64,000 nt of DNA from Pseudomonadota bacterium (GTDB lineage Bacteria > Pseudomonadota > Gammaproteobacteria > Burkholderiales > SG8-39). Position numbers and translations under genes: made by a program. The notes beneath the pieces were generated by a model that was not told the DNA's origin, did no database searches, and saw only the letters and a program-made list of their open reading frames with translations. The DNA is taken from assembly GCA_027624175.1 (NCBI GenBank), contig JAQBXT010000005.1, forward strand, positions 13,429-77,428. Direction: 5' to 3'. Shown here one piece after another: positions 7,241 through 54,439 of this stretch. Within the stretch, counting starts at the first letter, position 1. Each line of letters begins with the position of its first letter.

Positions 7241-8431
<1,191 letters not shown>

Positions 8432-8444
8432 AGACGAAGGCCAA

Positions 8445-8520
8445 AGGGGCATAGCTCAACTGGCAGAGCGTCGGTCTCCAAAACCGAAGGTTGGGGGTTC
8501 GATTCCCTCTGCCCCTGCCA
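8445..8520 (+). tRNA. tRNA-Trp (anticodon CCA), 3' CCA encoded
   Basis: Hand-folded cloverleaf: acceptor AGGGGCA/TGCCCCT, D stem GCTC/GAGC, anticodon stem TCGGT/ACCGA with loop CTCCAAA (CCA at 8478-8480), T arm GGGGG-TTCGATT-CCCTC, discriminator G plus CCA. Confidence 0.95.
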
Positions 8521-8531
8521 ACAGCGCGCAA

Positions 8532-36874: not shown

Positions 36875-38059
<1,185 letters not shown>

Positions 38060-38061
38060 CC

Positions 38062-39159
38062 ATGAACTTCGACTATAACGAAGAGCAGCAACTGCTCGCC
38101 GACTCCGTGCGGCGCTTCATCCAGAAGGGCTACGAGTTCGAGGCGCGCAAGAAGATCGTCGCCTCGGCCGAGGGCTACAGCGAACCGGTGTGGAAGACCC
38201 TTTCCGAGATGGGGCTCACCGGCATTCCGTTCTCGCCGGATTACGGCGGTTTCGGCGGGGGCGCCATCGATTTGCTGAGCGTGATGGAGGCGTTTGGCGA
38301 GGGCTTGGTGGTGGAGCCCTTCCTCGCCACCCTGCTCGGCGCGCAGTGCGTGGCGCGCGCGGGAAGCGACGCGCAAAAGAAGGCGATCCTGCCTGCGGTG
38401 GTGGAGGGCAAGCTGAGGATGGCATTCGCGCATACGGAGAAGGGCGCTCGCTACGACCTTGGCCACGTGAATGCGACGGCGAAAAAGTCGGGCAGCGGCT
38501 GGACCCTGGACGGCGAAAAGGTGGTGGTGCTGGGCGCGCCGGCCGCGGCGAAGCTGGTGGTGTCGGCGAAGACGCCTGCGGGCGTGAGCCTGTTCCTGGT
38601 TGAGGCGAAGGCCGTGAACCAGAAGCCCTACCGCACGTTGGATGAGATGCGTGCGGCGGATGTCGTTCTATCCAGCACGCCCGGCGAGTTGCTGGGTAGC
38701 GAAGGCAAGGCGCTGGCGGTTGTCGAGGAAGTGGTGGATTTCGCTACGGCGCTGGTTTGCGCCGAGTCGGTGGGCGCGATGAAGTACGCCTGCGACAGCA
38801 CGCTGGAGTACCTCAAGACGCGCAAACAGTTCGGCGTGCCGATCGGCACTTTCCAAGCGCTGCAACACCGCATCGTCGACATGTACGTCGCCTACGAGCA
38901 GGCGAAATCGATGGCCTTCCTTGCCTGCAGCCAGTCGGACTCGGCGGCGAACGCGAAGGAGCGCGCGCGCGCCATTTCAGCGGCGAAGATCAAGATCGCG
39001 GACAACGCGCGCCTCATCAGCCAGGAGGCGATCCAGTTGCACGGCGGCATGGGGATGAGCGAGGAACTGAAGGTAAGCCACAGCTTCCGGCGCCTGACCA
39101 TGATCGCGCAGCAGTTTGGCGACGCGGACTACCACCTGGAGCGGTTCGCTAGCGCCTGA
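38062..39159 (+). CDS. Acyl-CoA dehydrogenase family protein, small subunit (PimD-like)
   Basis: 365 aa, starting 2 nt after the previous stop. MNFDYNEEQQLLADSVRRF...FQALQHRIVDM...IQLHGGMGMSEE. Confidence 0.78.
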   Translation: MNFDYNEEQQLLADSVRRFIQKGYEFEARKKIVASAEGYSEPVWKTLSEMGLTGIPFSPDYGGFGGGAIDLLSVMEAFGEGLVVEPFLATLLGAQCVARAGSDAQKKAILPAVVEGKLRMAFAHTEKGARYDLGHVNATAKKSGSGWTLDGEKVVVLGAPAAAKLVVSAKTPAGVSLFLVEAKAVNQKPYRTLDEMRAADVVLSSTPGELLGSEGKALAVVEEVVDFATALVCAESVGAMKYACDSTLEYLKTRKQFGVPIGTFQALQHRIVDMYVAYEQAKSMAFLACSQSDSAANAKERARAISAAKIKIADNARLISQEAIQLHGGMGMSEELKVSHSFRRLTMIAQQFGDADYHLERFASA

Positions 39160-45628: not shown

Positions 45629-47416
45629 ATGGCCACGGAACGACGCATGGATCAGGGCGGGGACCGGCGCGAGAACATCGACATCACCTGGAGCAGCGTA
45701 GGCGAGGCGCTGATCATGATGGTGGACGACGAGCCGCTGGTCATCGAGATGACGCAGGCGTTACTCCAGCGCGCCGGCTACCGGCGATTCGTGTCCACGT
45801 CGGACTCCACCGAAGCGCTACCCATGCTGCTGCGCGAGCGCCCGAGCGTGCTGCTGCTCGACATCAACATGCCGAAGGTCAGCGGATTCGAGGTGCTGGC
45901 CAGCATCCGGGCGAACAAGGCCGTGCGCAGAATTCCGGTGATCGTGATGACCGTGGCCGACGACGCCGAAACGAAGCTCAAGGCGCTCGAGCTTGGGGCG
46001 ATGGATTTCCTGCGCAAGCCGGTGGACCCGAGCGAGCTTGCGCTGCGCCTGAGGAACTCGCTGGCCGCAAAGGCGCACGAGGATTACCTCTCGCATTACG
46101 ACGCGACGACCGGGTTGCCGGGCCGCCTGCGCTTCATTGAACAGCTGGAAAGTGCAATGGAGGAATCGCGGCAAGCAGGCTCGAGCGGCGCCTTGCTGCT
46201 GTTCAACCTGGACCGGTTCAAGCAGGTGAACGAGGCGCTCGGGCCGGCGGCGGGCGACCTGGTGCTGCAGGTATCGGGGGCGCGCCTCGCAACGGAGCTC
46301 AAGGACATGGACCGGGAGCAGGTTTTCGGCGAGGAAGCGCGTGCAGGCTATGTCGCTCGCTTCGGCGGCGACGAGTTCTCGGTGATGTGCGCTCCGAGTG
46401 CGAGCGTGGGCCATGTAGCGCGCGCAGCGCAGCGCCTGCTTAAGGCGCTTGAGACGCCTCACAAAGCCGACGGGCGCGACCTGGTCGTCACCGCCAGCCT
46501 TGGCGTCACGCTATTCCCGGCCGACGGCACGAATGCAGATTCCGTCGTCAGGAATGCGGGCGTCGCGCTCACGCAGGCCAAGCAGGCAGGCGGAAATGCC
46601 TACCGCTTTTACTCCAAGGAGTTCAGCGCCACCGCGCTGCAGCGGCTGGGCCTCGAGGGCCAGCTGCGCCACGCGGTGGAGCAGGGAGAGTTGCGGCTTT
46701 TTTACCAGCCGAAGTTCCATGTGGCGACACGGCGGCTGAGCGGCGCCGAAGTGCTGCTGCGCTGGCAGCATCCGCAGCGCGGCCTGGTACCGCCCATGGA
46801 GTTCATTCCCATTGCGGAGGAGTCCGGGCTGATCGTACCCATCGGCGCGTGGGTGCTGCTCGAGGCCTGCCAACAAAATGCCAGGTGGGCAGCGCAGGGA
46901 CTGCCGTGCCTGCCGATCGCGGTCAACGTGTCGCCGCGCCAGTTCCGGCAGGCCGGCCTCGTCCAGGCGGTCACGTTCGCCATCGCCGAGACCGGGCAGG
47001 GCGGGAACCTGCGGCTCGAGCTGACCGAGAGCTCGATCATGGACGACCCGGAGTCGGCGATCCGCGTTCTAAAGGTGCTCAAGGCGCTCGGCATCAAGCT
47101 GTCGATCGACGATTTCGGCACCGGCTACTCCTCGATGAGCTACCTGAACAGGCTGCCGCTAGACGAATTGAAGATCGATCGCTCTTTCCTCGCGGCGATC
47201 AAGAAAGCCGATGACCGGGTTGTCCTGGTCGACGCGATCATCGCCCTGGCGCACAGCCTTGACCTGGTCGTCGTGGCCGAAGGCGTGGAAACCGGCGGAC
47301 AACTCGAGTATCTGGCGCGGCACAAATGCGAGGAAGCGCAAGGCTTCCTGTTCAGCAAGCCCGTGCCCGCCGAGGAGTTCGCCGCAAAGTTCCTGAAGCC
47401 GGCGGCGGCCGCTTAG
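45629..47416 (+). CDS. Response regulator with REC-GGDEF-EAL domains
   Basis: REC: MVDDEPLV...LLLDINMP...MTVADD...DFLRKP. GGDEF: RFGGDEFSVM. EAL: QPKF, EVLLRW, NVSPRQ, ELTES, DDFGTGYSS, KIDRSF, AEGVET and QGFLFSKP. Confidence 0.9.
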   Translation: MATERRMDQGGDRRENIDITWSSVGEALIMMVDDEPLVIEMTQALLQRAGYRRFVSTSDSTEALPMLLRERPSVLLLDINMPKVSGFEVLASIRANKAVRRIPVIVMTVADDAETKLKALELGAMDFLRKPVDPSELALRLRNSLAAKAHEDYLSHYDATTGLPGRLRFIEQLESAMEESRQAGSSGALLLFNLDRFKQVNEALGPAAGDLVLQVSGARLATELKDMDREQVFGEEARAGYVARFGGDEFSVMCAPSASVGHVARAAQRLLKALETPHKADGRDLVVTASLGVTLFPADGTNADSVVRNAGVALTQAKQAGGNAYRFYSKEFSATALQRLGLEGQLRHAVEQGELRLFYQPKFHVATRRLSGAEVLLRWQHPQRGLVPPMEFIPIAEESGLIVPIGAWVLLEACQQNARWAAQGLPCLPIAVNVSPRQFRQAGLVQAVTFAIAETGQGGNLRLELTESSIMDDPESAIRVLKVLKALGIKLSIDDFGTGYSSMSYLNRLPLDELKIDRSFLAAIKKADDRVVLVDAIIALAHSLDLVVVAEGVETGGQLEYLARHKCEEAQGFLFSKPVPAEEFAAKFLKPAAAA

Positions 47417-47417
47417 C

Positions 47418-49166
47418 TCAGGCCGGTTCGAACTCCATCAACAGTTTTCCGGGCGCCACCTGCGCGCCTTTGGCGACATACACGCCTGTCACGCGCAGTG
47501 CGGCGGGCGCAGCAAGCGTGTGCTCCATTTTCATCGCCTCGAGCACCACCAGCGCGCCGCCGGCTGCAATCCTGTCGCCCGCCTTGGCATGCACCTCGAC
47601 CACGCGCGCGTTCATCGGCGCGGTGAGCCTGCCGTCGGCGAGGCCCGCGGCGGCGCGGTTGGGCGGATCCATGGTGGCGTCGCGCCAGCTATAGGAGTGG
47701 CCATCGAGCTCGAAATGCAGCATCGAGCCATCCAGAACACTAGTCGCGGACGGCGGCGTTGTGCCGCTCATGTTGCTCCAGCCGGACCATTCGCCGTAGC
47801 CCGCGGCCGCGGCGCAGGCCGCAGCATATAGTCCGCGCGCGAGTGATTCATCCGCCTGCGGCGCCTTCCATGCGGCGAAGCGTGCTGTGAGAAACGAGGT
47901 GCTGGCGCCTGGTCCGGCGAAAGTCGTGTCTCGAAGCACCGCAGCGAGGAAGGACTTGTTGGTCCTCACCCCAAGCGCCAGCGTGCCATCCAGCGCGGCG
48001 GCGAGCTTCTCGCGCGCTTCGTCGCGCGTGCGGCCGTGGGCGACGAGCTTGGCGAGAAGCGAGTCGTAGTAAGGCGGGACCTCCATGCCGCTCTCGAGCG
48101 CATGGTCCACGCGTACGCCGTTCGCCGGCTGCCACAGCGCGAGGCGTCCAGATTGCGGCAGAAAATCCTTGCACGGATCCTCGGCGCACAGGCGCGCCTC
48201 GATGGCGTGGCCGTCGAAGCGGATATCCTCCTGCTTCAGGGGCAGCGGCTCGCCCGCGGCGACGCGCAGCTGCCATTCAACCAGGTCGAGCCCGGTGATC
48301 GCTTCCGTGACGGGGTGCTCGACCTGCAGGCGCGCATTCACCTCGATAAACCAGAAGCCGCCCTGTTCATCGAGCAGGAACTCCACGGTGCCCGCGCCGA
48401 CATAGCCCGCGGCGCGCGCCACGGCGATGGCGGCGGCGCCGAGCTTCGCACGCAGCATCGCGTCCACGGCGGGCGAGGGCGATTCCTCGATCAGCTTCTG
48501 GTGGCGGCGCTGCACCGAGCAGTCGCGCTCGCCGAGATGGATGCAGTGTCCCCGGGTATCGGCGAACACCTGCACCTCCACGTGGCGCGGGGAAAGAAGC
48601 GCTTTCTCCAGCAGCACGCGCCCGTCGCCAAAGGCATGTGCGGCTTCGGACTTGGCCGAAGCAAGCGCGGCGTCGAGCTCCTGCGCCGAGCGCACGAGGC
48701 GCATGCCGCGACCGCCGCCGCCGGCGATCGCCTTGATGACGAGCGGAAACTCGGGCTTGCCTTCGTAGGTGGGCAGGACTGGCACGCCGGCCTTTGCGGC
48801 GAGCTTTTTCGCGTTCGCCTTGTCGCCCAGCGCGCGCATCGCTGCGGGCGGCGGGCCGACCCAGATGCGGCCCGCCTTCAGAACACGCTCGGCGAACTCC
48901 GCGTTCTCCGCAAGGAATCCGTAGCCGGGATGCACGGCATCCGCCTCGGCTTTCAGGATTGCGTCGATATTGAGGTAAGACTCGCGCGGCGCGGCACCAC
49001 CGATGTGCACGGCGTGGTCTGCCGCGCGCACATGCGGCGCGTCGCGGTCGGCGTCCGAGTACACCGCGGTTGTGCGCAAGCCCATGCGCTTTGCCGTGCG
49101 CGCCACGCGCAGTGCGATCTCGCCGCGGTTGGCAATCAGCAACGAGTTGAACGTAAGGTGGGCCAA
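47418..49166 (-). CDS. Acyl-CoA carboxylase alpha subunit (biotin carboxylase + BCCP), AtuF/LiuD-like
   Basis: LLIANRGEIALRVART, HPGYGFLAEN, KAIAGGGGRGM, FIEVNARLQVEHPVTE, and the biotinyl site LEAMKMEH. No in-frame ATG is available; the best start is TTG at 49166 (MAHLTFNSLLIANRG). The rest of track ORF ..50417 is an out-of-frame overlap with the next gene. Confidence 0.85.
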   Translation of the reverse strand: MAHLTFNSLLIANRGEIALRVARTAKRMGLRTTAVYSDADRDAPHVRAADHAVHIGGAAPRESYLNIDAILKAEADAVHPGYGFLAENAEFAERVLKAGRIWVGPPPAAMRALGDKANAKKLAAKAGVPVLPTYEGKPEFPLVIKAIAGGGGRGMRLVRSAQELDAALASAKSEAAHAFGDGRVLLEKALLSPRHVEVQVFADTRGHCIHLGERDCSVQRRHQKLIEESPSPAVDAMLRAKLGAAAIAVARAAGYVGAGTVEFLLDEQGGFWFIEVNARLQVEHPVTEAITGLDLVEWQLRVAAGEPLPLKQEDIRFDGHAIEARLCAEDPCKDFLPQSGRLALWQPANGVRVDHALESGMEVPPYYDSLLAKLVAHGRTRDEAREKLAAALDGTLALGVRTNKSFLAAVLRDTTFAGPGASTSFLTARFAAWKAPQADESLARGLYAAACAAAAGYGEWSGWSNMSGTTPPSATSVLDGSMLHFELDGHSYSWRDATMDPPNRAAAGLADGRLTAPMNARVVEVHAKAGDRIAAGGALVVLEAMKMEHTLAAPAALRVTGVYVAKGAQVAPGKLLMEFEPA

Positions 49167-49174
49167 GGCCCACC

Positions 49175-50335
49175 CTACTTGAGGTGCTTCGAGGGCAGGA
49201 TGCCCATGTACTTGCAGATGATGCCGAGCATCACCTCGTCGGCGCCGCCGCCGATCGAGCCCAGGCGCCCGTCCCGGTAGGCGCGCGACACCGGGTTGTC
49301 CCAGGTGTAGCCCATGCCGCCCCAGTACTGCAGGCAGGCATCCGACACCTCGCGGCGCAGGCGCCCGGCCTTGAGCTTGGCCATCGAGGCGAGCTCGGTG
49401 ACGTCCTCGCCCGCGACGTACATCTCGCAGGCGCGGTAGGTGAGGGCGCGCAGCGCTTCCACCTCGGTCTTGAGTTCCGCGAGGCGGTAGTGCACGTACT
49501 GGAAGTCGAGCACCGTCTGCCCGAACATCTTGCGCTCGCGCACGTATTCGATGGTTTCGCTGATGGTGCGCGTGAGTCCCTGCACGGTGCTCGCCGCCGC
49601 CCACAGGCGCTCTTCCTGGAATTGCTGCATCTGGTAGGTGAAGCCGAAGCCCTCTTCGCCGATGCGGTAGCGCTGCGGCACGCGCACCTCGTCGAAATGG
49701 ATCAGCCCCGTGTCCGAAGACATCATGCCGATCTTGCGGATTTTCTGCGCCTTGACCACGCCCTTGCTGTCCATCGGCACGCAGATCAGCGTCTTGTTCT
49801 TGTGCGGCGCGCCCTCCGAGGTATTGGCGAGCAGGCACATCCAGTCGGCCTGCAGGCTGTTGGTGATCCACATCTTCGCGCCGTTGATCACGTAGTCGCC
49901 GCCAACTTTCCTCGCGGTGGTCTTGATCGACGACACGTCCGACCCGGCGCCCGGTTCGGACACGCCGAGGCAGGCCACGTAGTCGCCCGAGATTGAGGGT
50001 GCAAGGAACTGCTTGCGCAACTCGTCGGAGCCGAAGCGCGCCAGCGCCGGCGTCGCCATGTCGGTCTGCACGCCGATCGCCATCGGCACGCCGCCGCAGC
50101 GGATATGGCCGAGGGTCTCGGCCATCACCATCGAGTAGCTGTAGTCGAGCGCCGCGCCGCCGTAGGCTTCCGGCTTGGTGAGGCCGAGCAGCCCCAGGTC
50201 GCCCAGCTTCTTGAACACCTCGTGCGCGGGAAACTGCTCCGCCGCCTCCCACGCGTCGACATGCGGGTTGATCTCGTTGTCGATCAGGCGCTTCAGGTTG
50301 CGCCGGATTTCTTCGTGTTCCTGGGTGAACTGCAT
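49175..50335 (-). CDS. Acyl-CoA dehydrogenase, AtuD/citronellyl-CoA dehydrogenase-like
   Basis: The ATG at 50335 gives MQFTQEHEEIRRNLKRLIDNEINPHVDAWE...CLGVSEPGAGSDV...SIGGGADEVMLGIICK. Confidence 0.85.
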   Translation of the reverse strand: MQFTQEHEEIRRNLKRLIDNEINPHVDAWEAAEQFPAHEVFKKLGDLGLLGLTKPEAYGGAALDYSYSMVMAETLGHIRCGGVPMAIGVQTDMATPALARFGSDELRKQFLAPSISGDYVACLGVSEPGAGSDVSSIKTTARKVGGDYVINGAKMWITNSLQADWMCLLANTSEGAPHKNKTLICVPMDSKGVVKAQKIRKIGMMSSDTGLIHFDEVRVPQRYRIGEEGFGFTYQMQQFQEERLWAAASTVQGLTRTISETIEYVRERKMFGQTVLDFQYVHYRLAELKTEVEALRALTYRACEMYVAGEDVTELASMAKLKAGRLRREVSDACLQYWGGMGYTWDNPVSRAYRDGRLGSIGGGADEVMLGIICKYMGILPSKHLK

Positions 50336-50793
50336 GGGCGCGCGTCCTTCGTCGTGTCTGGTCGGGCGATGGTAGAACACAATCGATGCGGCCTCTGGCA
50401 TCGAGAAGCACGCGCATCGCGGGACGATTCTACTGCGGTCGGACCGGTCAATCGGATCGGGGATTCGGCCCCCGTGCGGTCTGCGTCCTTGCGTCTGCTA
50501 CAGATCCGCCTGGACCAGCCACGCCGGTCCTGACCTACCACCCGGTTCCCGACATCGCCTGAATCCGCTGCGCGAGTGCGCGCTCGTATTGCCTCGAACG
50601 TTCATGGCACTAGCGACGCCTGGCCGATAGATTTCCATGTGGATTTATGCCAATAAGGGCTCTCGACGCGACATGGGCGCCAGTGCGCTGTGCGTCGGGG
50701 CTAGGTAGCATCAAGGGGGATTTCATGGAACGTGGCGCGCACAGCCTCGGACATATTTTCCTATTCGTTCGGGGGTGTAATATTCTCAACGGC

Positions 50794-50991
50794 ATGGACG
50801 AGCCAATTCATCCGGTTCAGCTTGAGGCGTTGAAACGCGCGACGCCGGCACAGAAGCTGGAGATGGTTGGCGCGCTATACGAAGCCGGCATCCTGCTGCG
50901 GATGGCGGGTTTGCGCATGACGCACCCGGATTGGCCGGCCGACCGGCTCGAGCACGAGGCGCGCCGCTCGCTGCGCCATGCCGGCACCTGA
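50794..50991 (+). CDS. Small helical hypothetical protein (65 aa), partner of the downstream NTase-fold gene
   Basis: MDEPIHPVQLEALKRATPAQKLEMVGALYEAGILLRMAGLRMTHPDWPADRLEHEARRSLRHAGT. It overlaps the next ORF by 14 nt. The start is uncertain (in-frame ATGs also at 50647 and 50725, but their codons look non-coding). TAATAT lies 10 nt upstream of 50794. Confidence 0.5.
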   Translation: MDEPIHPVQLEALKRATPAQKLEMVGALYEAGILLRMAGLRMTHPDWPADRLEHEARRSLRHAGT

Positions 50992-51538
50992 TCCGTTCGC
51001 GCCGTTTCTCGATCCGCTCGAGCGCCTGGGACTGCGCTACTGCATCACTGGCTCGGTCGCGGCCAGCGTTTACGGCGAACCGAGGCTGACAGCTGGCATC
51101 GACGTGGTCCTGCTGTTGCGGCCGCAGGACATTCCCCTCTTGCGGTCCGGTTTTCCGGACGCCGACTACTACACGCCGCCCGAAGGGACTATGCGCGAAG
51201 CAATCGCGCGCAGCGCACACGGGATGTTCAACCTGGTCCACCACAAGAGCCAGTTCAAGGCCGATATCTATGTCGCCGCCGGGGATCCGCTGCACGCCTG
51301 GGCGCTCGAGCACAGGCGCCGCATCGATTTGCCGGGAGGCGGGGCCTGGATTGCGCCGCCCGAGTACGTGATCTTGCGCAAACTCGAATTCCTGCGCGAA
51401 GGAGGATCCGACAAGCATCTCCGGGACATCCGGTTCATGTTGGCCGCGACCGCCGTTGACCGCGCGTTCATTGAACGGGAAGTGGCGCGCCTCGGCGTGC
51501 AGGCGCAATGGCGCTCAGCGGGCGGGTACCAGCCTTAG
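50978..51538 (+). CDS. Nucleotidyltransferase-fold (minimal NTase-like) hypothetical protein, 186 aa
   Basis: LRYCITGSVAASVYGEPRLTAGIDVVLLL fits hG[GS]x9-13[DE]h[DE]h, but with Gly at the first acidic position. A later acidic strand (KADIYV) and C-terminal PPEYVILRKLEFLREGGSDKHLRDIRFML are typical of this kind of NTase. Confidence 0.6.
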   Translation: MPAPDPFAPFLDPLERLGLRYCITGSVAASVYGEPRLTAGIDVVLLLRPQDIPLLRSGFPDADYYTPPEGTMREAIARSAHGMFNLVHHKSQFKADIYVAAGDPLHAWALEHRRRIDLPGGGAWIAPPEYVILRKLEFLREGGSDKHLRDIRFMLAATAVDRAFIEREVARLGVQAQWRSAGGYQP

Positions 51539-51611
51539 CTTTTCGCCAATAGCGGTACGCGATGCGACCGGGGACGGACAGGTTCTCGTATCCGTTGGAT
51601 GCCATGCCGGG

Positions 51612-53222
51612 TCAGGGCCTGGCGACGCCGAATTGAACGGGCCGAACGGCGCGCGCATCGCCTTCCTTGCAGATCGACAGCACATAGCCAAGCACATTGC
51701 GCGTATCGCGCGGGTCGATGATGCCGTCGTCCAGCAGCAGCGCCGAGGTGACCAGCGCGCTTTGCTGGCGCTCAAAGTTCTCCACGATCTTCGCCTTCAG
51801 GGCGTCGATCTGCGGGTGGTCCACGTCCTGGCCTTTTCTTTTCATGCCGGCCTCCATGACGATCGCCATGGTGAGCGCGGCCTGCTCGGCGCCCATCACC
51901 GCGGTTTGCGCGTTGGGCCAGGAAAACAGGAAACGCGGCTGGTAGCCGCGCCCGCACATGCCGTAGTTCCCGGCGCCGAAGGAGGCGCCGCACATCAGCG
52001 TGATCTGCGGCACGTTGGCGTTCGACACCGCCTGGATCATCTTCGAGCCGTGCTTGATCATGCCCGCTTCTTCTGAAGCCTTGCCGACGATGTAGCCGGT
52101 GGTGTTCTGCAGGTAGAGGATCGGCAAGCCCACCTGGCAGCAGGACTGGATGAAGTGAGTCGCCTTGTTTGCGCCCGCCGGGTCGAGCGGCGCGTTGTTG
52201 GTGAGGATGCCGACGCGAAAGCCCTGCACAGTCGCGTGCCCGCACACCGTCGCCGGCCCGTAGTCGGCCTTGAAATCGAGGAAGTCGGAATCGTCCACGA
52301 TGCGCGCGATGGCTTCGCGCATGTCGACCGGCTTTCTGTAATCCTCCGGAATCACGCCGAGCAGTTCCTCGGCAGCGTAGCGCGGCGGTTTGCCCGCCGG
52401 CGTGAAGGACGATTTCCAATCCAGGCGCGAGAGCACTTCGCGCGCGTAGCGGATGCCGTCGGCGTCGTCTTCTGCGAGGTACTCGCCAAGACCCGAGACC
52501 TGCGTGTGCATCACCGCGCCGCCCAATTCCTCGTCGGTGGCGATTTCGCCGGTGGCGGCTTTGAGCAGCGGTGGCCCGGCGAGAAAGGCCTTGGCCCGCC
52601 CGCGCACCATAATTACGTAGTCCGAGAGCCCCGGCATGTAGGCGCCGCCGGCAGTGGAAGAACCGTGCACCACCGTCACCACCGGCAGGCCGGCAGCAGA
52701 GAGCTTCGCCAGGTTGTAGAAGATCGCGCCGCCGTGGATGAAGCCCTCGACGCGGTACTTGAGCAGATTCGCGCCCGCCGATTCGACCAGGTGCACGAAC
52801 GGCAGCCGGTTCTCCAGCGCGAGGCCCTGCGCGCGGATCAGTTTCTCGCGCCCCATGTGCTGGATCGCGCCGGCGTCGATGCCCGAATCGCTCGCCACCA
52901 CCATCGAGCGCACGCCGGACACGTAGCCGACGCCCGCGATCATGCCGCCGCCGGGGATGGTCTTCTCCGGGTCGGGATGGTCCAGGCAGTAGCCGGCCAT
53001 GGACGACAACTCGAGCCAGGGCGCGCCCGCATCGAGCAGTCGCGCGATGCGCTCGCGCGGCAGAAGTTGCCCGCGCTTTTTGAACAGCGGCCTGGCTTTG
53101 GCGGATTCGTCGCGCGTGCGCGCCTCCATCTGCCGCAGGCGCTCGATCAGCTTCAGCATGCCCGCGCGGTTGCGCAGGAACGCCTCGCCGGTGACTTCGA
53201 TTTTCGATTGGATCAGGGGCAT
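51612..53222 (-). CDS. Acyl-CoA carboxylase beta (carboxyltransferase) subunit, AtuC/LiuB-like
   Basis: The ATG at 53222 gives MPLIQSKIEVTGEAFLRNRAGM... (536 aa). GGGMIAGVGYVSG, VHGSSTAGGAYMPG and CGASFGAGNYGMCGR. The 21 extra N-terminal codons of the track ORF are rejected. Confidence 0.88.
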   Translation of the reverse strand: MPLIQSKIEVTGEAFLRNRAGMLKLIERLRQMEARTRDESAKARPLFKKRGQLLPRERIARLLDAGAPWLELSSMAGYCLDHPDPEKTIPGGGMIAGVGYVSGVRSMVVASDSGIDAGAIQHMGREKLIRAQGLALENRLPFVHLVESAGANLLKYRVEGFIHGGAIFYNLAKLSAAGLPVVTVVHGSSTAGGAYMPGLSDYVIMVRGRAKAFLAGPPLLKAATGEIATDEELGGAVMHTQVSGLGEYLAEDDADGIRYAREVLSRLDWKSSFTPAGKPPRYAAEELLGVIPEDYRKPVDMREAIARIVDDSDFLDFKADYGPATVCGHATVQGFRVGILTNNAPLDPAGANKATHFIQSCCQVGLPILYLQNTTGYIVGKASEEAGMIKHGSKMIQAVSNANVPQITLMCGASFGAGNYGMCGRGYQPRFLFSWPNAQTAVMGAEQAALTMAIVMEAGMKRKGQDVDHPQIDALKAKIVENFERQQSALVTSALLLDDGIIDPRDTRNVLGYVLSICKEGDARAVRPVQFGVARP

Positions 53223-53284
53223 GGGCCGCGCAACAAAGAAGGCATCTGCTTGGTCAGTGTCCACCATTGGAATATGATCCGTCA

Positions 53285-54439
53285 ATGATCCCCCGGACCC
53301 TGTTCACGCCGGAGCACGAGACCTTCCGCGACAGTGTGCGCAGGTTCATGGAGGAGGAGGTCAAGCCGCACGACGAGCGCTGGCAGGAGCAGGGCTACGT
53401 GGATCGCGAAGTGTGGCTGAAGGCCGGCGCCAACGGCTTCCTGTGCGCCTCGATGCCCGAGGAGTACGGCGGCTCCGGTGCGGACAAGCTCTACAGCGTG
53501 GTGCTGATGGAAGAGCAGGCGCGCGCCAACAACTCGTCGCTGGGCTGGGGGCTGCACTCGGAAATCGTCGCGCCCTACCTCCTGCGCTACGGCAGCGACG
53601 CGCTGAAGAAGAAGTACCTGCCGAAAATGGCCGCCGGCGAGATGATCGGCGCCATCGCCATGAGCGAGCCCGGCGCGGGCTCCGACCTGCAGGCGGTGAA
53701 GACCAGCGCGCAGAAAAAGGGCGACAAGTACGTCGTCAACGGCTCGAAGACCTTCATCACCAACGGCTGGCACTGCGACCTGGTGATCGTGGTGGCGAAG
53801 ACCGACCCGGCGAAAGGCGCCAAGGGCACCAGCCTGGTGGTCGTCGACACCACGATGAAGGGTTTCACCAAAGGCAAGCGGCTGAAAAAGCTGGGCCTCA
53901 AGGGCCAGGACACGGCGGAGCTGTTTTTCGACAACGTAGAAGTGCCGGCGGAGAACCTCCTCGGGCAGGAGAACAACGGCTTCATCTACCTGATGCAGGA
54001 GCTTCCCTGGGAGCGCATGCAGATCGCGATCGCGGCGGTGGCGAAAGCCGAGGCGGCGATCGAGTGGACCAAGACCTACGTCAGCGAGCGCAAGGCCTTC
54101 GGCAAGCTGGTGTCGAGCTTCCAGAACACGCGCTTCAAGCTGGCGGAACTTGCCACCGAAGTGCAGATCGCACGGGTATTCGTCGATCGTTGCCTGGAGT
54201 TGCTGCTGGAGAACAAGCTCGACACCGCCACCGCTTCGATGGCGAAATACTGGGTCACCGACCTGGAGTGCAAGGTGATCGACGAGTGCCTGCAGCTGCA
54301 CGGCGGCTACGGCTTCATGTGGGAGTTCCCCATCGCGCGCGCCTACGTGGACGCACGCGTGCAGCGCATCTACGGTGGCACCAACGAAATCATGAAAGAA
54401 GTCATATCCCGCTCAATGGGACTGGGAGGCAAGGACTAG
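53285..54439 (+). CDS. Acyl-CoA dehydrogenase
   Basis: The ATG at 53285 gives MIPRTLFTPEHETFRDSVRRFMEEEV...AMSEPGAGSDL...RIYGGTNEIMKEVISR. Divergent from the carboxylase beta gene across a 62-bp spacer. Confidence 0.88.
   Translation: MIPRTLFTPEHETFRDSVRRFMEEEVKPHDERWQEQGYVDREVWLKAGANGFLCASMPEEYGGSGADKLYSVVLMEEQARANNSSLGWGLHSEIVAPYLLRYGSDALKKKYLPKMAAGEMIGAIAMSEPGAGSDLQAVKTSAQKKGDKYVVNGSKTFITNGWHCDLVIVVAKTDPAKGAKGTSLVVVDTTMKGFTKGKRLKKLGLKGQDTAELFFDNVEVPAENLLGQENNGFIYLMQELPWERMQIAIAAVAKAEAAIEWTKTYVSERKAFGKLVSSFQNTRFKLAELATEVQIARVFVDRCLELLLENKLDTATASMAKYWVTDLECKVIDECLQLHGGYGFMWEFPIARAYVDARVQRIYGGTNEIMKEVISRSMGLGGKD

Follow-up and report, generated by a model that had tools for sequence, protein, structure and literature searches.

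A MenAT1-type toxin–antitoxin gene pair with a glycine at a catalytic aspartate position, inserted in an acyl-CoA carboxylase gene cluster

We analysed a 64,000-nt stretch of contig JAQBXT010000005.1 (the window, to which coordinates refer unless another locus is named), in which a toxin–antitoxin (TA) gene pair of the MenAT1 type lies between the carboxyltransferase and acyl-CoA dehydrogenase genes of a minus-strand carboxylase cluster. The pair consists of two overlapping plus-strand open reading frames (ORFs) and has the following features:

50778-50783, plus strand: TAATAT, a -10-like element (consensus in the family GGTGTAnnAT) whose end lies 10 nt ahead of the antitoxin ATG.
50794-50991, plus strand: MenA1-like antitoxin gene, 65 aa; match to PF18993 below the cut-off, all-helical model.
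50978-51538, plus strand: MenT1-like minimal nucleotidyltransferase (NTase) toxin gene, 186 aa; matches to MenT1 by fold and by family profile.
51095-51097, plus strand: codon GGC for Gly40 of the toxin, placed by profile alignment at the position of the MenT1 catalytic Asp41.

The two genes share 14 nt (50978-50991), as a first-pass annotation made from the letters of this DNA had reported, and both have numerous homologues. For the 186-residue protein, a search of a 90%-clustered collection gave 2816 homologues at E ≤ 1e-3; those listed from this search are 73–97% identical to it, about 165–200 residues long (nearly all 181–190) and almost all annotated as 'hypothetical protein'. Among 50%-identity clusters it has 6348 representatives at the same threshold. 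The tail segment KLEFLREGGSDKHLRDIRF that the first-pass annotation had pointed out in this product is present. The 65-residue protein has 178 homologues. Judged by this wide conservation, both plus-strand ORFs are real genes and not chance occurrences. The antitoxin gene could in principle start further upstream, in a 114-residue ORF (50647-50991, plus strand) within which the ATG at 50794 gives the 65-residue product. However, the majority of the 120 homologues listed are called at 65 residues, and N-terminal extensions, where present, are not conserved. We therefore place the true start at 50794 and not at 50647, and reject the longer ORF, which had been named as a possible real product. 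A 240-residue ORF on the minus strand (50786-51508) lies opposite the pair; because the plus-strand genes have homology support, we take it to be spurious, probably an artefact of high GC content (65% GC sequence opposite a real gene).

The toxin was identified by structure prediction and by profile comparison. An AlphaFold (AF2) model built on 20 homologues (predicted local distance difference test (pLDDT) score 85, a pTM (predicted template modelling) value of 0.82) was compared with the PDB using Foldseek, and ranks 1–5 were all MenT1 (Rv0078A of Mycobacterium tuberculosis; 8AN5, 8AN4 and 8RR5), with a best E of 6e-7. Four of these matches have template modelling (TM) scores of 0.52–0.71 and the fifth (8RR5) scores 0.42–0.44. 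MenT1 outranks TM1012, ANT(2'')-Ia, LnuA, MenT3 and MenT4 in this search, with TglT also further down. A family profile of 54 diverse relatives that are 30–59% identical to the window toxin (A3) reached the MenT1 chain 8an4_A at E = 5.7e-13, aligning residues 6–183 with 6–192 and thus covering the full length; this diversity was needed, since a shallow profile (A1) reached MenT1 only at E = 0.042. By both approaches the protein has the minimal two-domain NTase fold of MenT1, in line with the NTase fold that had been proposed from its sequence. Among the 54 relatives, 35 match PF08843 (AbiEii) weakly and 4 match Pfam Aminoglyc_resit weakly.

These last matches bear on the alternative that the NTase is not a toxin but an enzyme acting on small molecules like the antibiotic-resistance proteins ANT(2'')/Lnu, or one resembling TM1012, with the 65-residue protein an unrelated neighbour. 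The fold search did return ANT(2'')-Ia, LnuA and TM1012, with E values from 2e-4 to 4e-3, and the four Aminoglyc_resit matches point in the same direction, but MenT1 ranks above these proteins by both fold and profile. Moreover, a gene that is strictly coupled to a PF18993 antitoxin gene and overlaps it by a conserved 14 nt bears the signature of a TA system and not of a resistance gene. We regard this alternative as extremely unlikely.

The 65-residue protein matches PF18993 (Rv0078B-related antitoxin) weakly, at E = 5.4e-4 and 20.4 bits, below the cut-off. The family is also matched by 20 of 21 of its homologues (best E = 5.2e-9), and nearly all of the homologues listed bear a precomputed PF18993 tag. 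Its AF2 model (pLDDT 90) is all-helical with three helices, as expected from the helical character first ascribed to it, and the top fold match of the model among 350,542 PDB chains is 8AN5_C, which is MenA1. The C-terminal RRSLRH of this protein had been read as a loose match to the Rx4H motif; the segment sits in the conserved C-terminal helix of what is a PF18993-like protein, no HEPN match was found for the protein, and the likeness is irrelevant. The sole match of the helix–turn–helix (HTH) type, to PF13309 HTH_22, is below threshold (E = 0.067, 13.7 bits against a 29.6-bit cut-off).

We assessed the linkage of the two genes in 82 loci with a toxin homologue (80 metagenomic loci together with L001 and L085). 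The antitoxin gene lies directly upstream of the toxin gene in 78 of them, the antitoxin-first, one-operon arrangement of MenAT1, and 77 of these 78 complete pairs, like the window pair, have the identical 14-nt overlap. Of the remaining loci, three are cut by contig ends and one (L138) retains an antitoxin remnant. In this last locus (L138, 3700-4549) the toxin homologue has an intact D-x-D and is preceded by only the last ~9 antitoxin codons (...ARRSLLNAGT). Either the toxin is an orphan or the contig is a chimera. L136 has another toxin homologue besides that of its main pair; it is distant (33% identity over 119 residues) and lies at 8180-8530, some 3.6 kb further downstream on this contig.

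The neighbourhoods of the pair vary widely, falling into 33 distinct upstream groups (60 loci) and 35 distinct downstream groups (51 loci). Co-occurrence and mobility, which the first-pass annotation had put forward as a check, are thus evident in the 78 linked pairs and in more than 30 different settings. Gene tables cover five of the contexts; most of the neighbours there have ordinary metabolic or housekeeping roles (for example rhodanese and ABC-F; TetR/EthD and formamidase; DctPQM and TctABC; purF/metZ-like and peptidyl-prolyl isomerase (PPIase) genes), and no integrase or transposase is among them. The exception is L170, in which the pair stands beside Uma2 and AAA_14/DUF4143 genes. No relatives were found in viral contigs or in a phage collection. 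Plasmids yielded only six distant relatives (27–35% identity; five cyanobacterial and one from Herpetosiphon), all annotated as 'hypothetical'; in the one plasmid relative that we inspected, the gene is annotated as longer and there is no separate small gene upstream.

A single non-coding element is conserved across loci. The motif TAnnAT is found at a fixed distance from the antitoxin ATG in the 71 loci that extend far enough upstream, whereas the sequence further upstream is unrelated, and no Shine–Dalgarno sequence follows it. A generic sigma-70 scan called no promoter, and the -10-like element was found just by comparing loci. We consider TAATAT at 50778 a likely promoter element, consistent with the near-leaderless transcript that had been suggested to start there.

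Direct repeats flank the pair in four unrelated contexts (L104/L109/L120; L092; L136; L132/L134). They are 25–70 nt long and exceed shuffled sequences significantly (z values of 7–22). The repeat of L104 measures 26 nt: one copy lies directly against the -10 element, with its end 20 nt ahead of the antitoxin ATG, and the other begins 5 nt beyond the toxin stop codon, an arrangement that outlines a putative mobile unit of ~760 bp with a target duplication. Most loci, the window included, have no such flanking repeat.

Rv0078B and Rv0078A of M. tuberculosis are the antitoxin MenA1 and the toxin MenT1, which together form the MenAT1 TA system (PMC10435456). MenT1 adds cytidines, and other nucleotides less well, to the 3'-CCA of tRNA, by which translation is blocked, and one MenA1 binds asymmetrically across two MenT1 protomers with the active site blocked (PMC10435456). 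The window pair resembles MenAT1 (Rv0078B-Rv0078A; PDB 8AN4, 8AN5 and 8RR5) in having the antitoxin gene first in one operon, in the sizes of the products (65 versus 68 residues for the antitoxin and 186 versus ~196 for the toxin), in a helical antitoxin without a recognised DNA-binding domain, and in a toxin with the two-domain minimal NTase fold and a T-x-D-x-D ... K ... D active site, for which MenT1 is the best PDB match by fold and profile. It differs in that its toxin is only 18–19% identical to MenT1 and is missed by PF08843 (no match at E ≤ 10), and in that its antitoxin scores below the 27.1-bit cut-off of PF18993. The clade to which it belongs is proteobacterial, drawn from environmental Burkholderiales-like and other metagenome-assembled genomes (MAGs), and far outnumbers the set of 21 menA1 homologues that the original paper surveyed. 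The conserved 14-nt gene overlap of the window pair and the Gly of the window copy at the D41 position are further differences.

The window pair is best filed in MenAT1, with which it agrees in gene order, product sizes, toxin fold, the layout of the active site and, by a match that is sub-threshold for the window protein itself, antitoxin family. The TA-like architecture first noted here is thus that of a known system, and the novelty implied for it does not stand, given a near point-for-point match to a characterised family. What is mildly new is the size of the unlabelled proteobacterial clade, the natural D-to-G variants at the catalytic Asp and the variability of the junction occupied in the window. 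The assignment gives a function to a very large unlabelled family of thousands of clusters, almost all annotated as 'hypothetical protein', and extends the MenAT1 type from the 21 surveyed menA1 homologues into environmental Proteobacteria. It reveals no new mechanism, and the window pair opens no long-standing question.

Two other NTase-containing systems invite comparison. AbiE (AbiEi/AbiEii), a type IV TA system, and MenAT3 and MenAT4, with DUF1814 toxins of ~290 residues, share the NTase superfamily and the four-motif active site with the window pair. However, their toxins are ~100 residues longer, and the antitoxins AbiEi and MenA3 are ~200-residue COG5340/winged-HTH (wHTH) proteins and not 65-residue helical ones. 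The AbiE combination of a PF08843 toxin with a ~200-residue COG5340 AbiEi, made up of a wHTH and a C-terminal domain, is not found in the window. The type VII MNT-HEPN system (MntA-HepT) likewise consists of two overlapping genes in one operon, for a minimal NTase and a small partner, but there the NTase is the antitoxin and the toxin is a HEPN RNase (Rx4-6H, ~130 residues), whereas the window NTase is a MenT1-like toxin and its 65-residue partner is not a HEPN protein. The judgement that the pair is not a canonical MNT-HEPN system is upheld by the lack of a HEPN match, the resemblance of the partner to MenA1 and the role of the NTase as the toxin.

The pair might nonetheless serve in abortive infection or anti-phage defence as an AbiE-type (AbiEi/AbiEii) module, or be an MNT-HEPN pair, given that MenT toxins belong to the AbiEii (DUF1814) superfamily, that PF08843 is weakly matched by the 35 relatives mentioned above, and that the module is mobile and its junction variable. 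The size and family of the partner rule out membership of AbiE/DUF1814 or MNT-HEPN, as the 65-residue protein has no wHTH or COG5340 AbiEi domain and no HEPN domain. Neither protein has a PADLOC match (PADLOC-DB 2.0) at E ≤ 10, and the module is absent from the viral contigs and phages searched. Only one of the five tabled contexts (L170) includes Uma2 and AAA_14/DUF4143 genes, and nothing ties the pair to a defence system, although no defence-system scan of the contexts was made. We consider this alternative very unlikely, although modules of the MenAT1 type may still have a role in defence.

The setting of the MenAT1-type pair in the window is described by the following features:

47418-49166, minus strand: biotin carboxylase gene with a biotinyl domain (Pfam).
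49175-50335, minus strand: acyl-CoA dehydrogenase (ACAD) gene, divergent from the antitoxin gene; domains Pfam Acyl-CoA_dh_N, _M and _1.
50336-50793, no strand: 458-bp spacer from the ACAD start to the antitoxin start, AT-richer toward the TA promoter and without a conserved ORF.
50375-51598, no strand: lineage-specific insert of ~1.22 kb carrying the TA module, delimited by the ends of blastn homology and the short junctions of relatives.
51612-53222, minus strand: acyl-CoA carboxylase carboxyltransferase (beta) gene (Pfam Carboxyl_trans, E = 1.4e-116), convergent with the toxin gene.

The three minus-strand genes are present as first annotated, with agreeing Pfam domains. The stretch of about 460 bp of non-coding, locally AT-richer DNA described at the same time measures 458 bp; its GC content dips to 0.555–0.565 at 50600-50900 (0.555 at 50600-50799), compared with ~0.62–0.72 elsewhere in the profiled region (48500-53500). 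Rfam gave no match in 50250-51700.

We compared the carboxyltransferase–dehydrogenase junction using 80 genomes that carry the dehydrogenase. Blastn homology to eight close relatives, in which the dehydrogenase is 89–96% identical, ends at ~51597-51616 (51683 in L011) on one side and at ~50335-50374 on the other. In four relatives (L005, L006, L010 and L011) only 4–165 bp separate the two genes and there is no TA pair. From these homology ends and short junctions it follows that ~50375-51598 is a lineage-specific insert, which substantiates the early proposal of a cassette inserted between the carboxylase-beta and dehydrogenase genes. In the MAG JBASCW01 this junction is empty (L011), and an 81%-identical pair is found at a different place (L172), beside metZ-like and metallophosphoesterase genes. 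At least one close relative shares the insertion, since the 995-bp contig L085, with a 97%-identical pair, matches window positions 50749-51641 and thus runs into the 3' end of the carboxyltransferase gene. The locus is a clear example of a TA module that has landed within a catabolic operon, at an intergenic spot that is variable, and on sequence comparison the junction looks like a recurrent landing site. A possible insertion scar, a 34-nt flanking direct repeat (50644-50677 versus 51540-51573, 71% identity), did not rise above shuffled controls and was dropped.

Different genes were seen at the equivalent junction in other close relatives. L007 (5264-5984) has a different 78-residue ORF and a 163-residue NTase with an 8-nt overlap, on the operon strand; this NTase matches Pfam Aminoglyc_resit and DUF2204 and is distantly related to the window toxin, with an hhalign probability of 93.6%. 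The junction holds an MBL-fold hydrolase in L009 (5108-5947), a DUF4383 membrane protein in L012 (5390-5911) and, in L008 (434-2764), a 776-residue ORF that has the look of a molybdenum hydroxylase, judged by appearance with no library scan.

The window toxin departs from its family at the active site. Profile alignment places MenT1 T39, D41, D43, K137 and D152 at T38, G40, D42, K135 and D150 of the window protein, so that the Gly seen in place of the first catalytic Asp (TAGID) when the sequence was first read corresponds to MenT1 D41. T38, D42, K135, D150 and an Asp at position 40 are each at least 90% conserved across the diverse toxin family, and Asp40 is found in P0001 (97% identical), in 118 of the 120 top homologues and in every one of the 82 loci. 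For close homologues as a whole the count is 200 of 202. Thus, the clade overall has the MenT1 catalytic set of T39, D41, K137 and D152, whereas the window copy has G40 for D41. In MenT1, D41A, K137A and D152A each abolish toxicity (PMC10435456), and natural D-to-G variants mirror the laboratory D41A mutant. Because D41A abolishes MenT1 toxicity and Gly40 occupies the equivalent position, the window toxin is most likely catalytically dead or strongly attenuated. Relative to L085, the window copy has further departures from consensus at conserved positions, namely P20R and V66T of the toxin and A26G of the antitoxin, a pattern that fits relaxed constraint. The assignment to MenAT1 holds on these sequence features, with the window copy as a degenerate member of the family.

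Taken together, we think it quite probable that 50778-51538 is a self-contained, horizontally acquired TA module of the MenAT1 type, in which the D40G toxin is most likely dead or attenuated, decaying or 'disarmed', and the antitoxin is intact. By analogy with MenAT1, a near-leaderless bicistronic transcript would start just after the conserved -10-like element and encode the 65-residue, three-helix MenA1-like antitoxin followed by the translationally coupled 186-residue minimal MenT1-like NTase. Free toxin would add nucleotides to tRNA 3'-CCA ends, preventing aminoacylation and stopping translation. The antitoxin would neutralise it by binding across the active-site face, and may also induce autophosphorylation of a conserved Thr (T38; MenT1 T39). 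In MenT1 this autophosphorylation of T39 is induced by MenA1 binding, requires D41 and K137, and is abolished by D41A (PMC11375011). In the window copy, loss of the first metal-binding Asp of TxDxD (D40G, GAC to GGC) would leave a disarmed toxin beside an intact antitoxin. Decaying chromosomal TA loci of this kind are known, for example ccdO157 in Escherichia coli, where the toxin is disabled by a point mutation, the antitoxin is intact and the intergenic spot is empty in relatives. The ccdO157-type loci differ from the window pair in toxin family and target, and decay in the window is proposed from one catalytic substitution.

Several observations weigh against this interpretation. For the family assignment, these include the 18–19% identity to MenT1 and the sub-threshold PF18993 score noted above. 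In single-sequence searches the window toxin has no match in Pfam, NCBIfam or PADLOC, and phmmer with the single toxin sequence found nothing among PDB sequences, so that the link to MenT1 requires a profile or a structure model. The fold match of the antitoxin to 8AN5_C has E = 1.5 and is not significant alone, and neither the single antitoxin sequence nor its family profile (A2) reached a MenA1 chain in the PDB. Toxicity, activity and the tRNA target in the proteobacterial clade are transferred from MenAT1 by homology only. As to the proposed decay, a comparison with the closest relative gives 9 differences and a ratio of nonsynonymous to synonymous substitution rates (dN/dS) of 0.66 for the toxin and 4 differences and 0.33 for the antitoxin, too few to be informative. 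D40G could be an assembly or sequencing (consensus) error, or it could be tolerated, with D42 remaining. Finally, G, A or Y at position 40 recurs in a few other family members, and this recurrence could mean a functional variant and not decay.

The question of tolerance leads to the alternative that the module is fully functional, with the metal held by D42 and another acidic residue and the toxin active despite Gly40. The toxin ORF is intact, all other catalytic residues are conserved, the antitoxin is intact, and G at position 40 is also present in P0055, P0056, P0245, P0265 and P0311. However, D41A abolishes the toxicity, NTase activity and autophosphorylation of MenT1, ~98% of close homologues have Asp, the 97%-identical one among them, and the window copy is also altered at the conserved sites listed above (P20R and V66T in the toxin, A26G in the antitoxin). 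We consider a fully functional module unlikely.

Because G at position 40 is present in at least five other family members, it is also conceivable, if rather improbable, that the Gly-for-Asp variant is a recurrent, selected, 'domesticated' form of the toxin and not a product of decay. The non-toxic D41A variant of MenT1 has been reported to remove the terminal A from a tRNA by trimming (PMC10435456), and for this reason the G40 protein might act as a non-lethal enzyme that remodels tRNA 3' ends. Another possibility is that the disarmed pair is retained for anti-addiction, as a source of antitoxin against MenAT1-type elements that come in.

Some minor observations concern the surroundings of the MenAT1-type module. 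A terminator-like hairpin with a 7-bp stem and a weak T tail lies at 50383-50404 on the minus strand, at the insert's edge and just upstream of the dehydrogenase start. Given this hairpin and the convergent toxin gene, one may ask whether the carboxylase cluster is still co-transcribed across the insert. Adjoining the biotin carboxylase gene is a 595-residue ORF (45629-47416, plus strand) whose translation reads as having receiver-like, GGDEF ('RFGGDEF') and EAL-like ('ELTES') features, which suggests a response regulator of cyclic di-GMP (c-di-GMP) turnover. The window also contains two further acyl-CoA dehydrogenase paralogues on the plus strand, at 53267-54439 and 36881-38062, which are 37% and 25% identical, respectively, to the copy beside the insert; the first of these is divergently transcribed from the carboxyltransferase gene.

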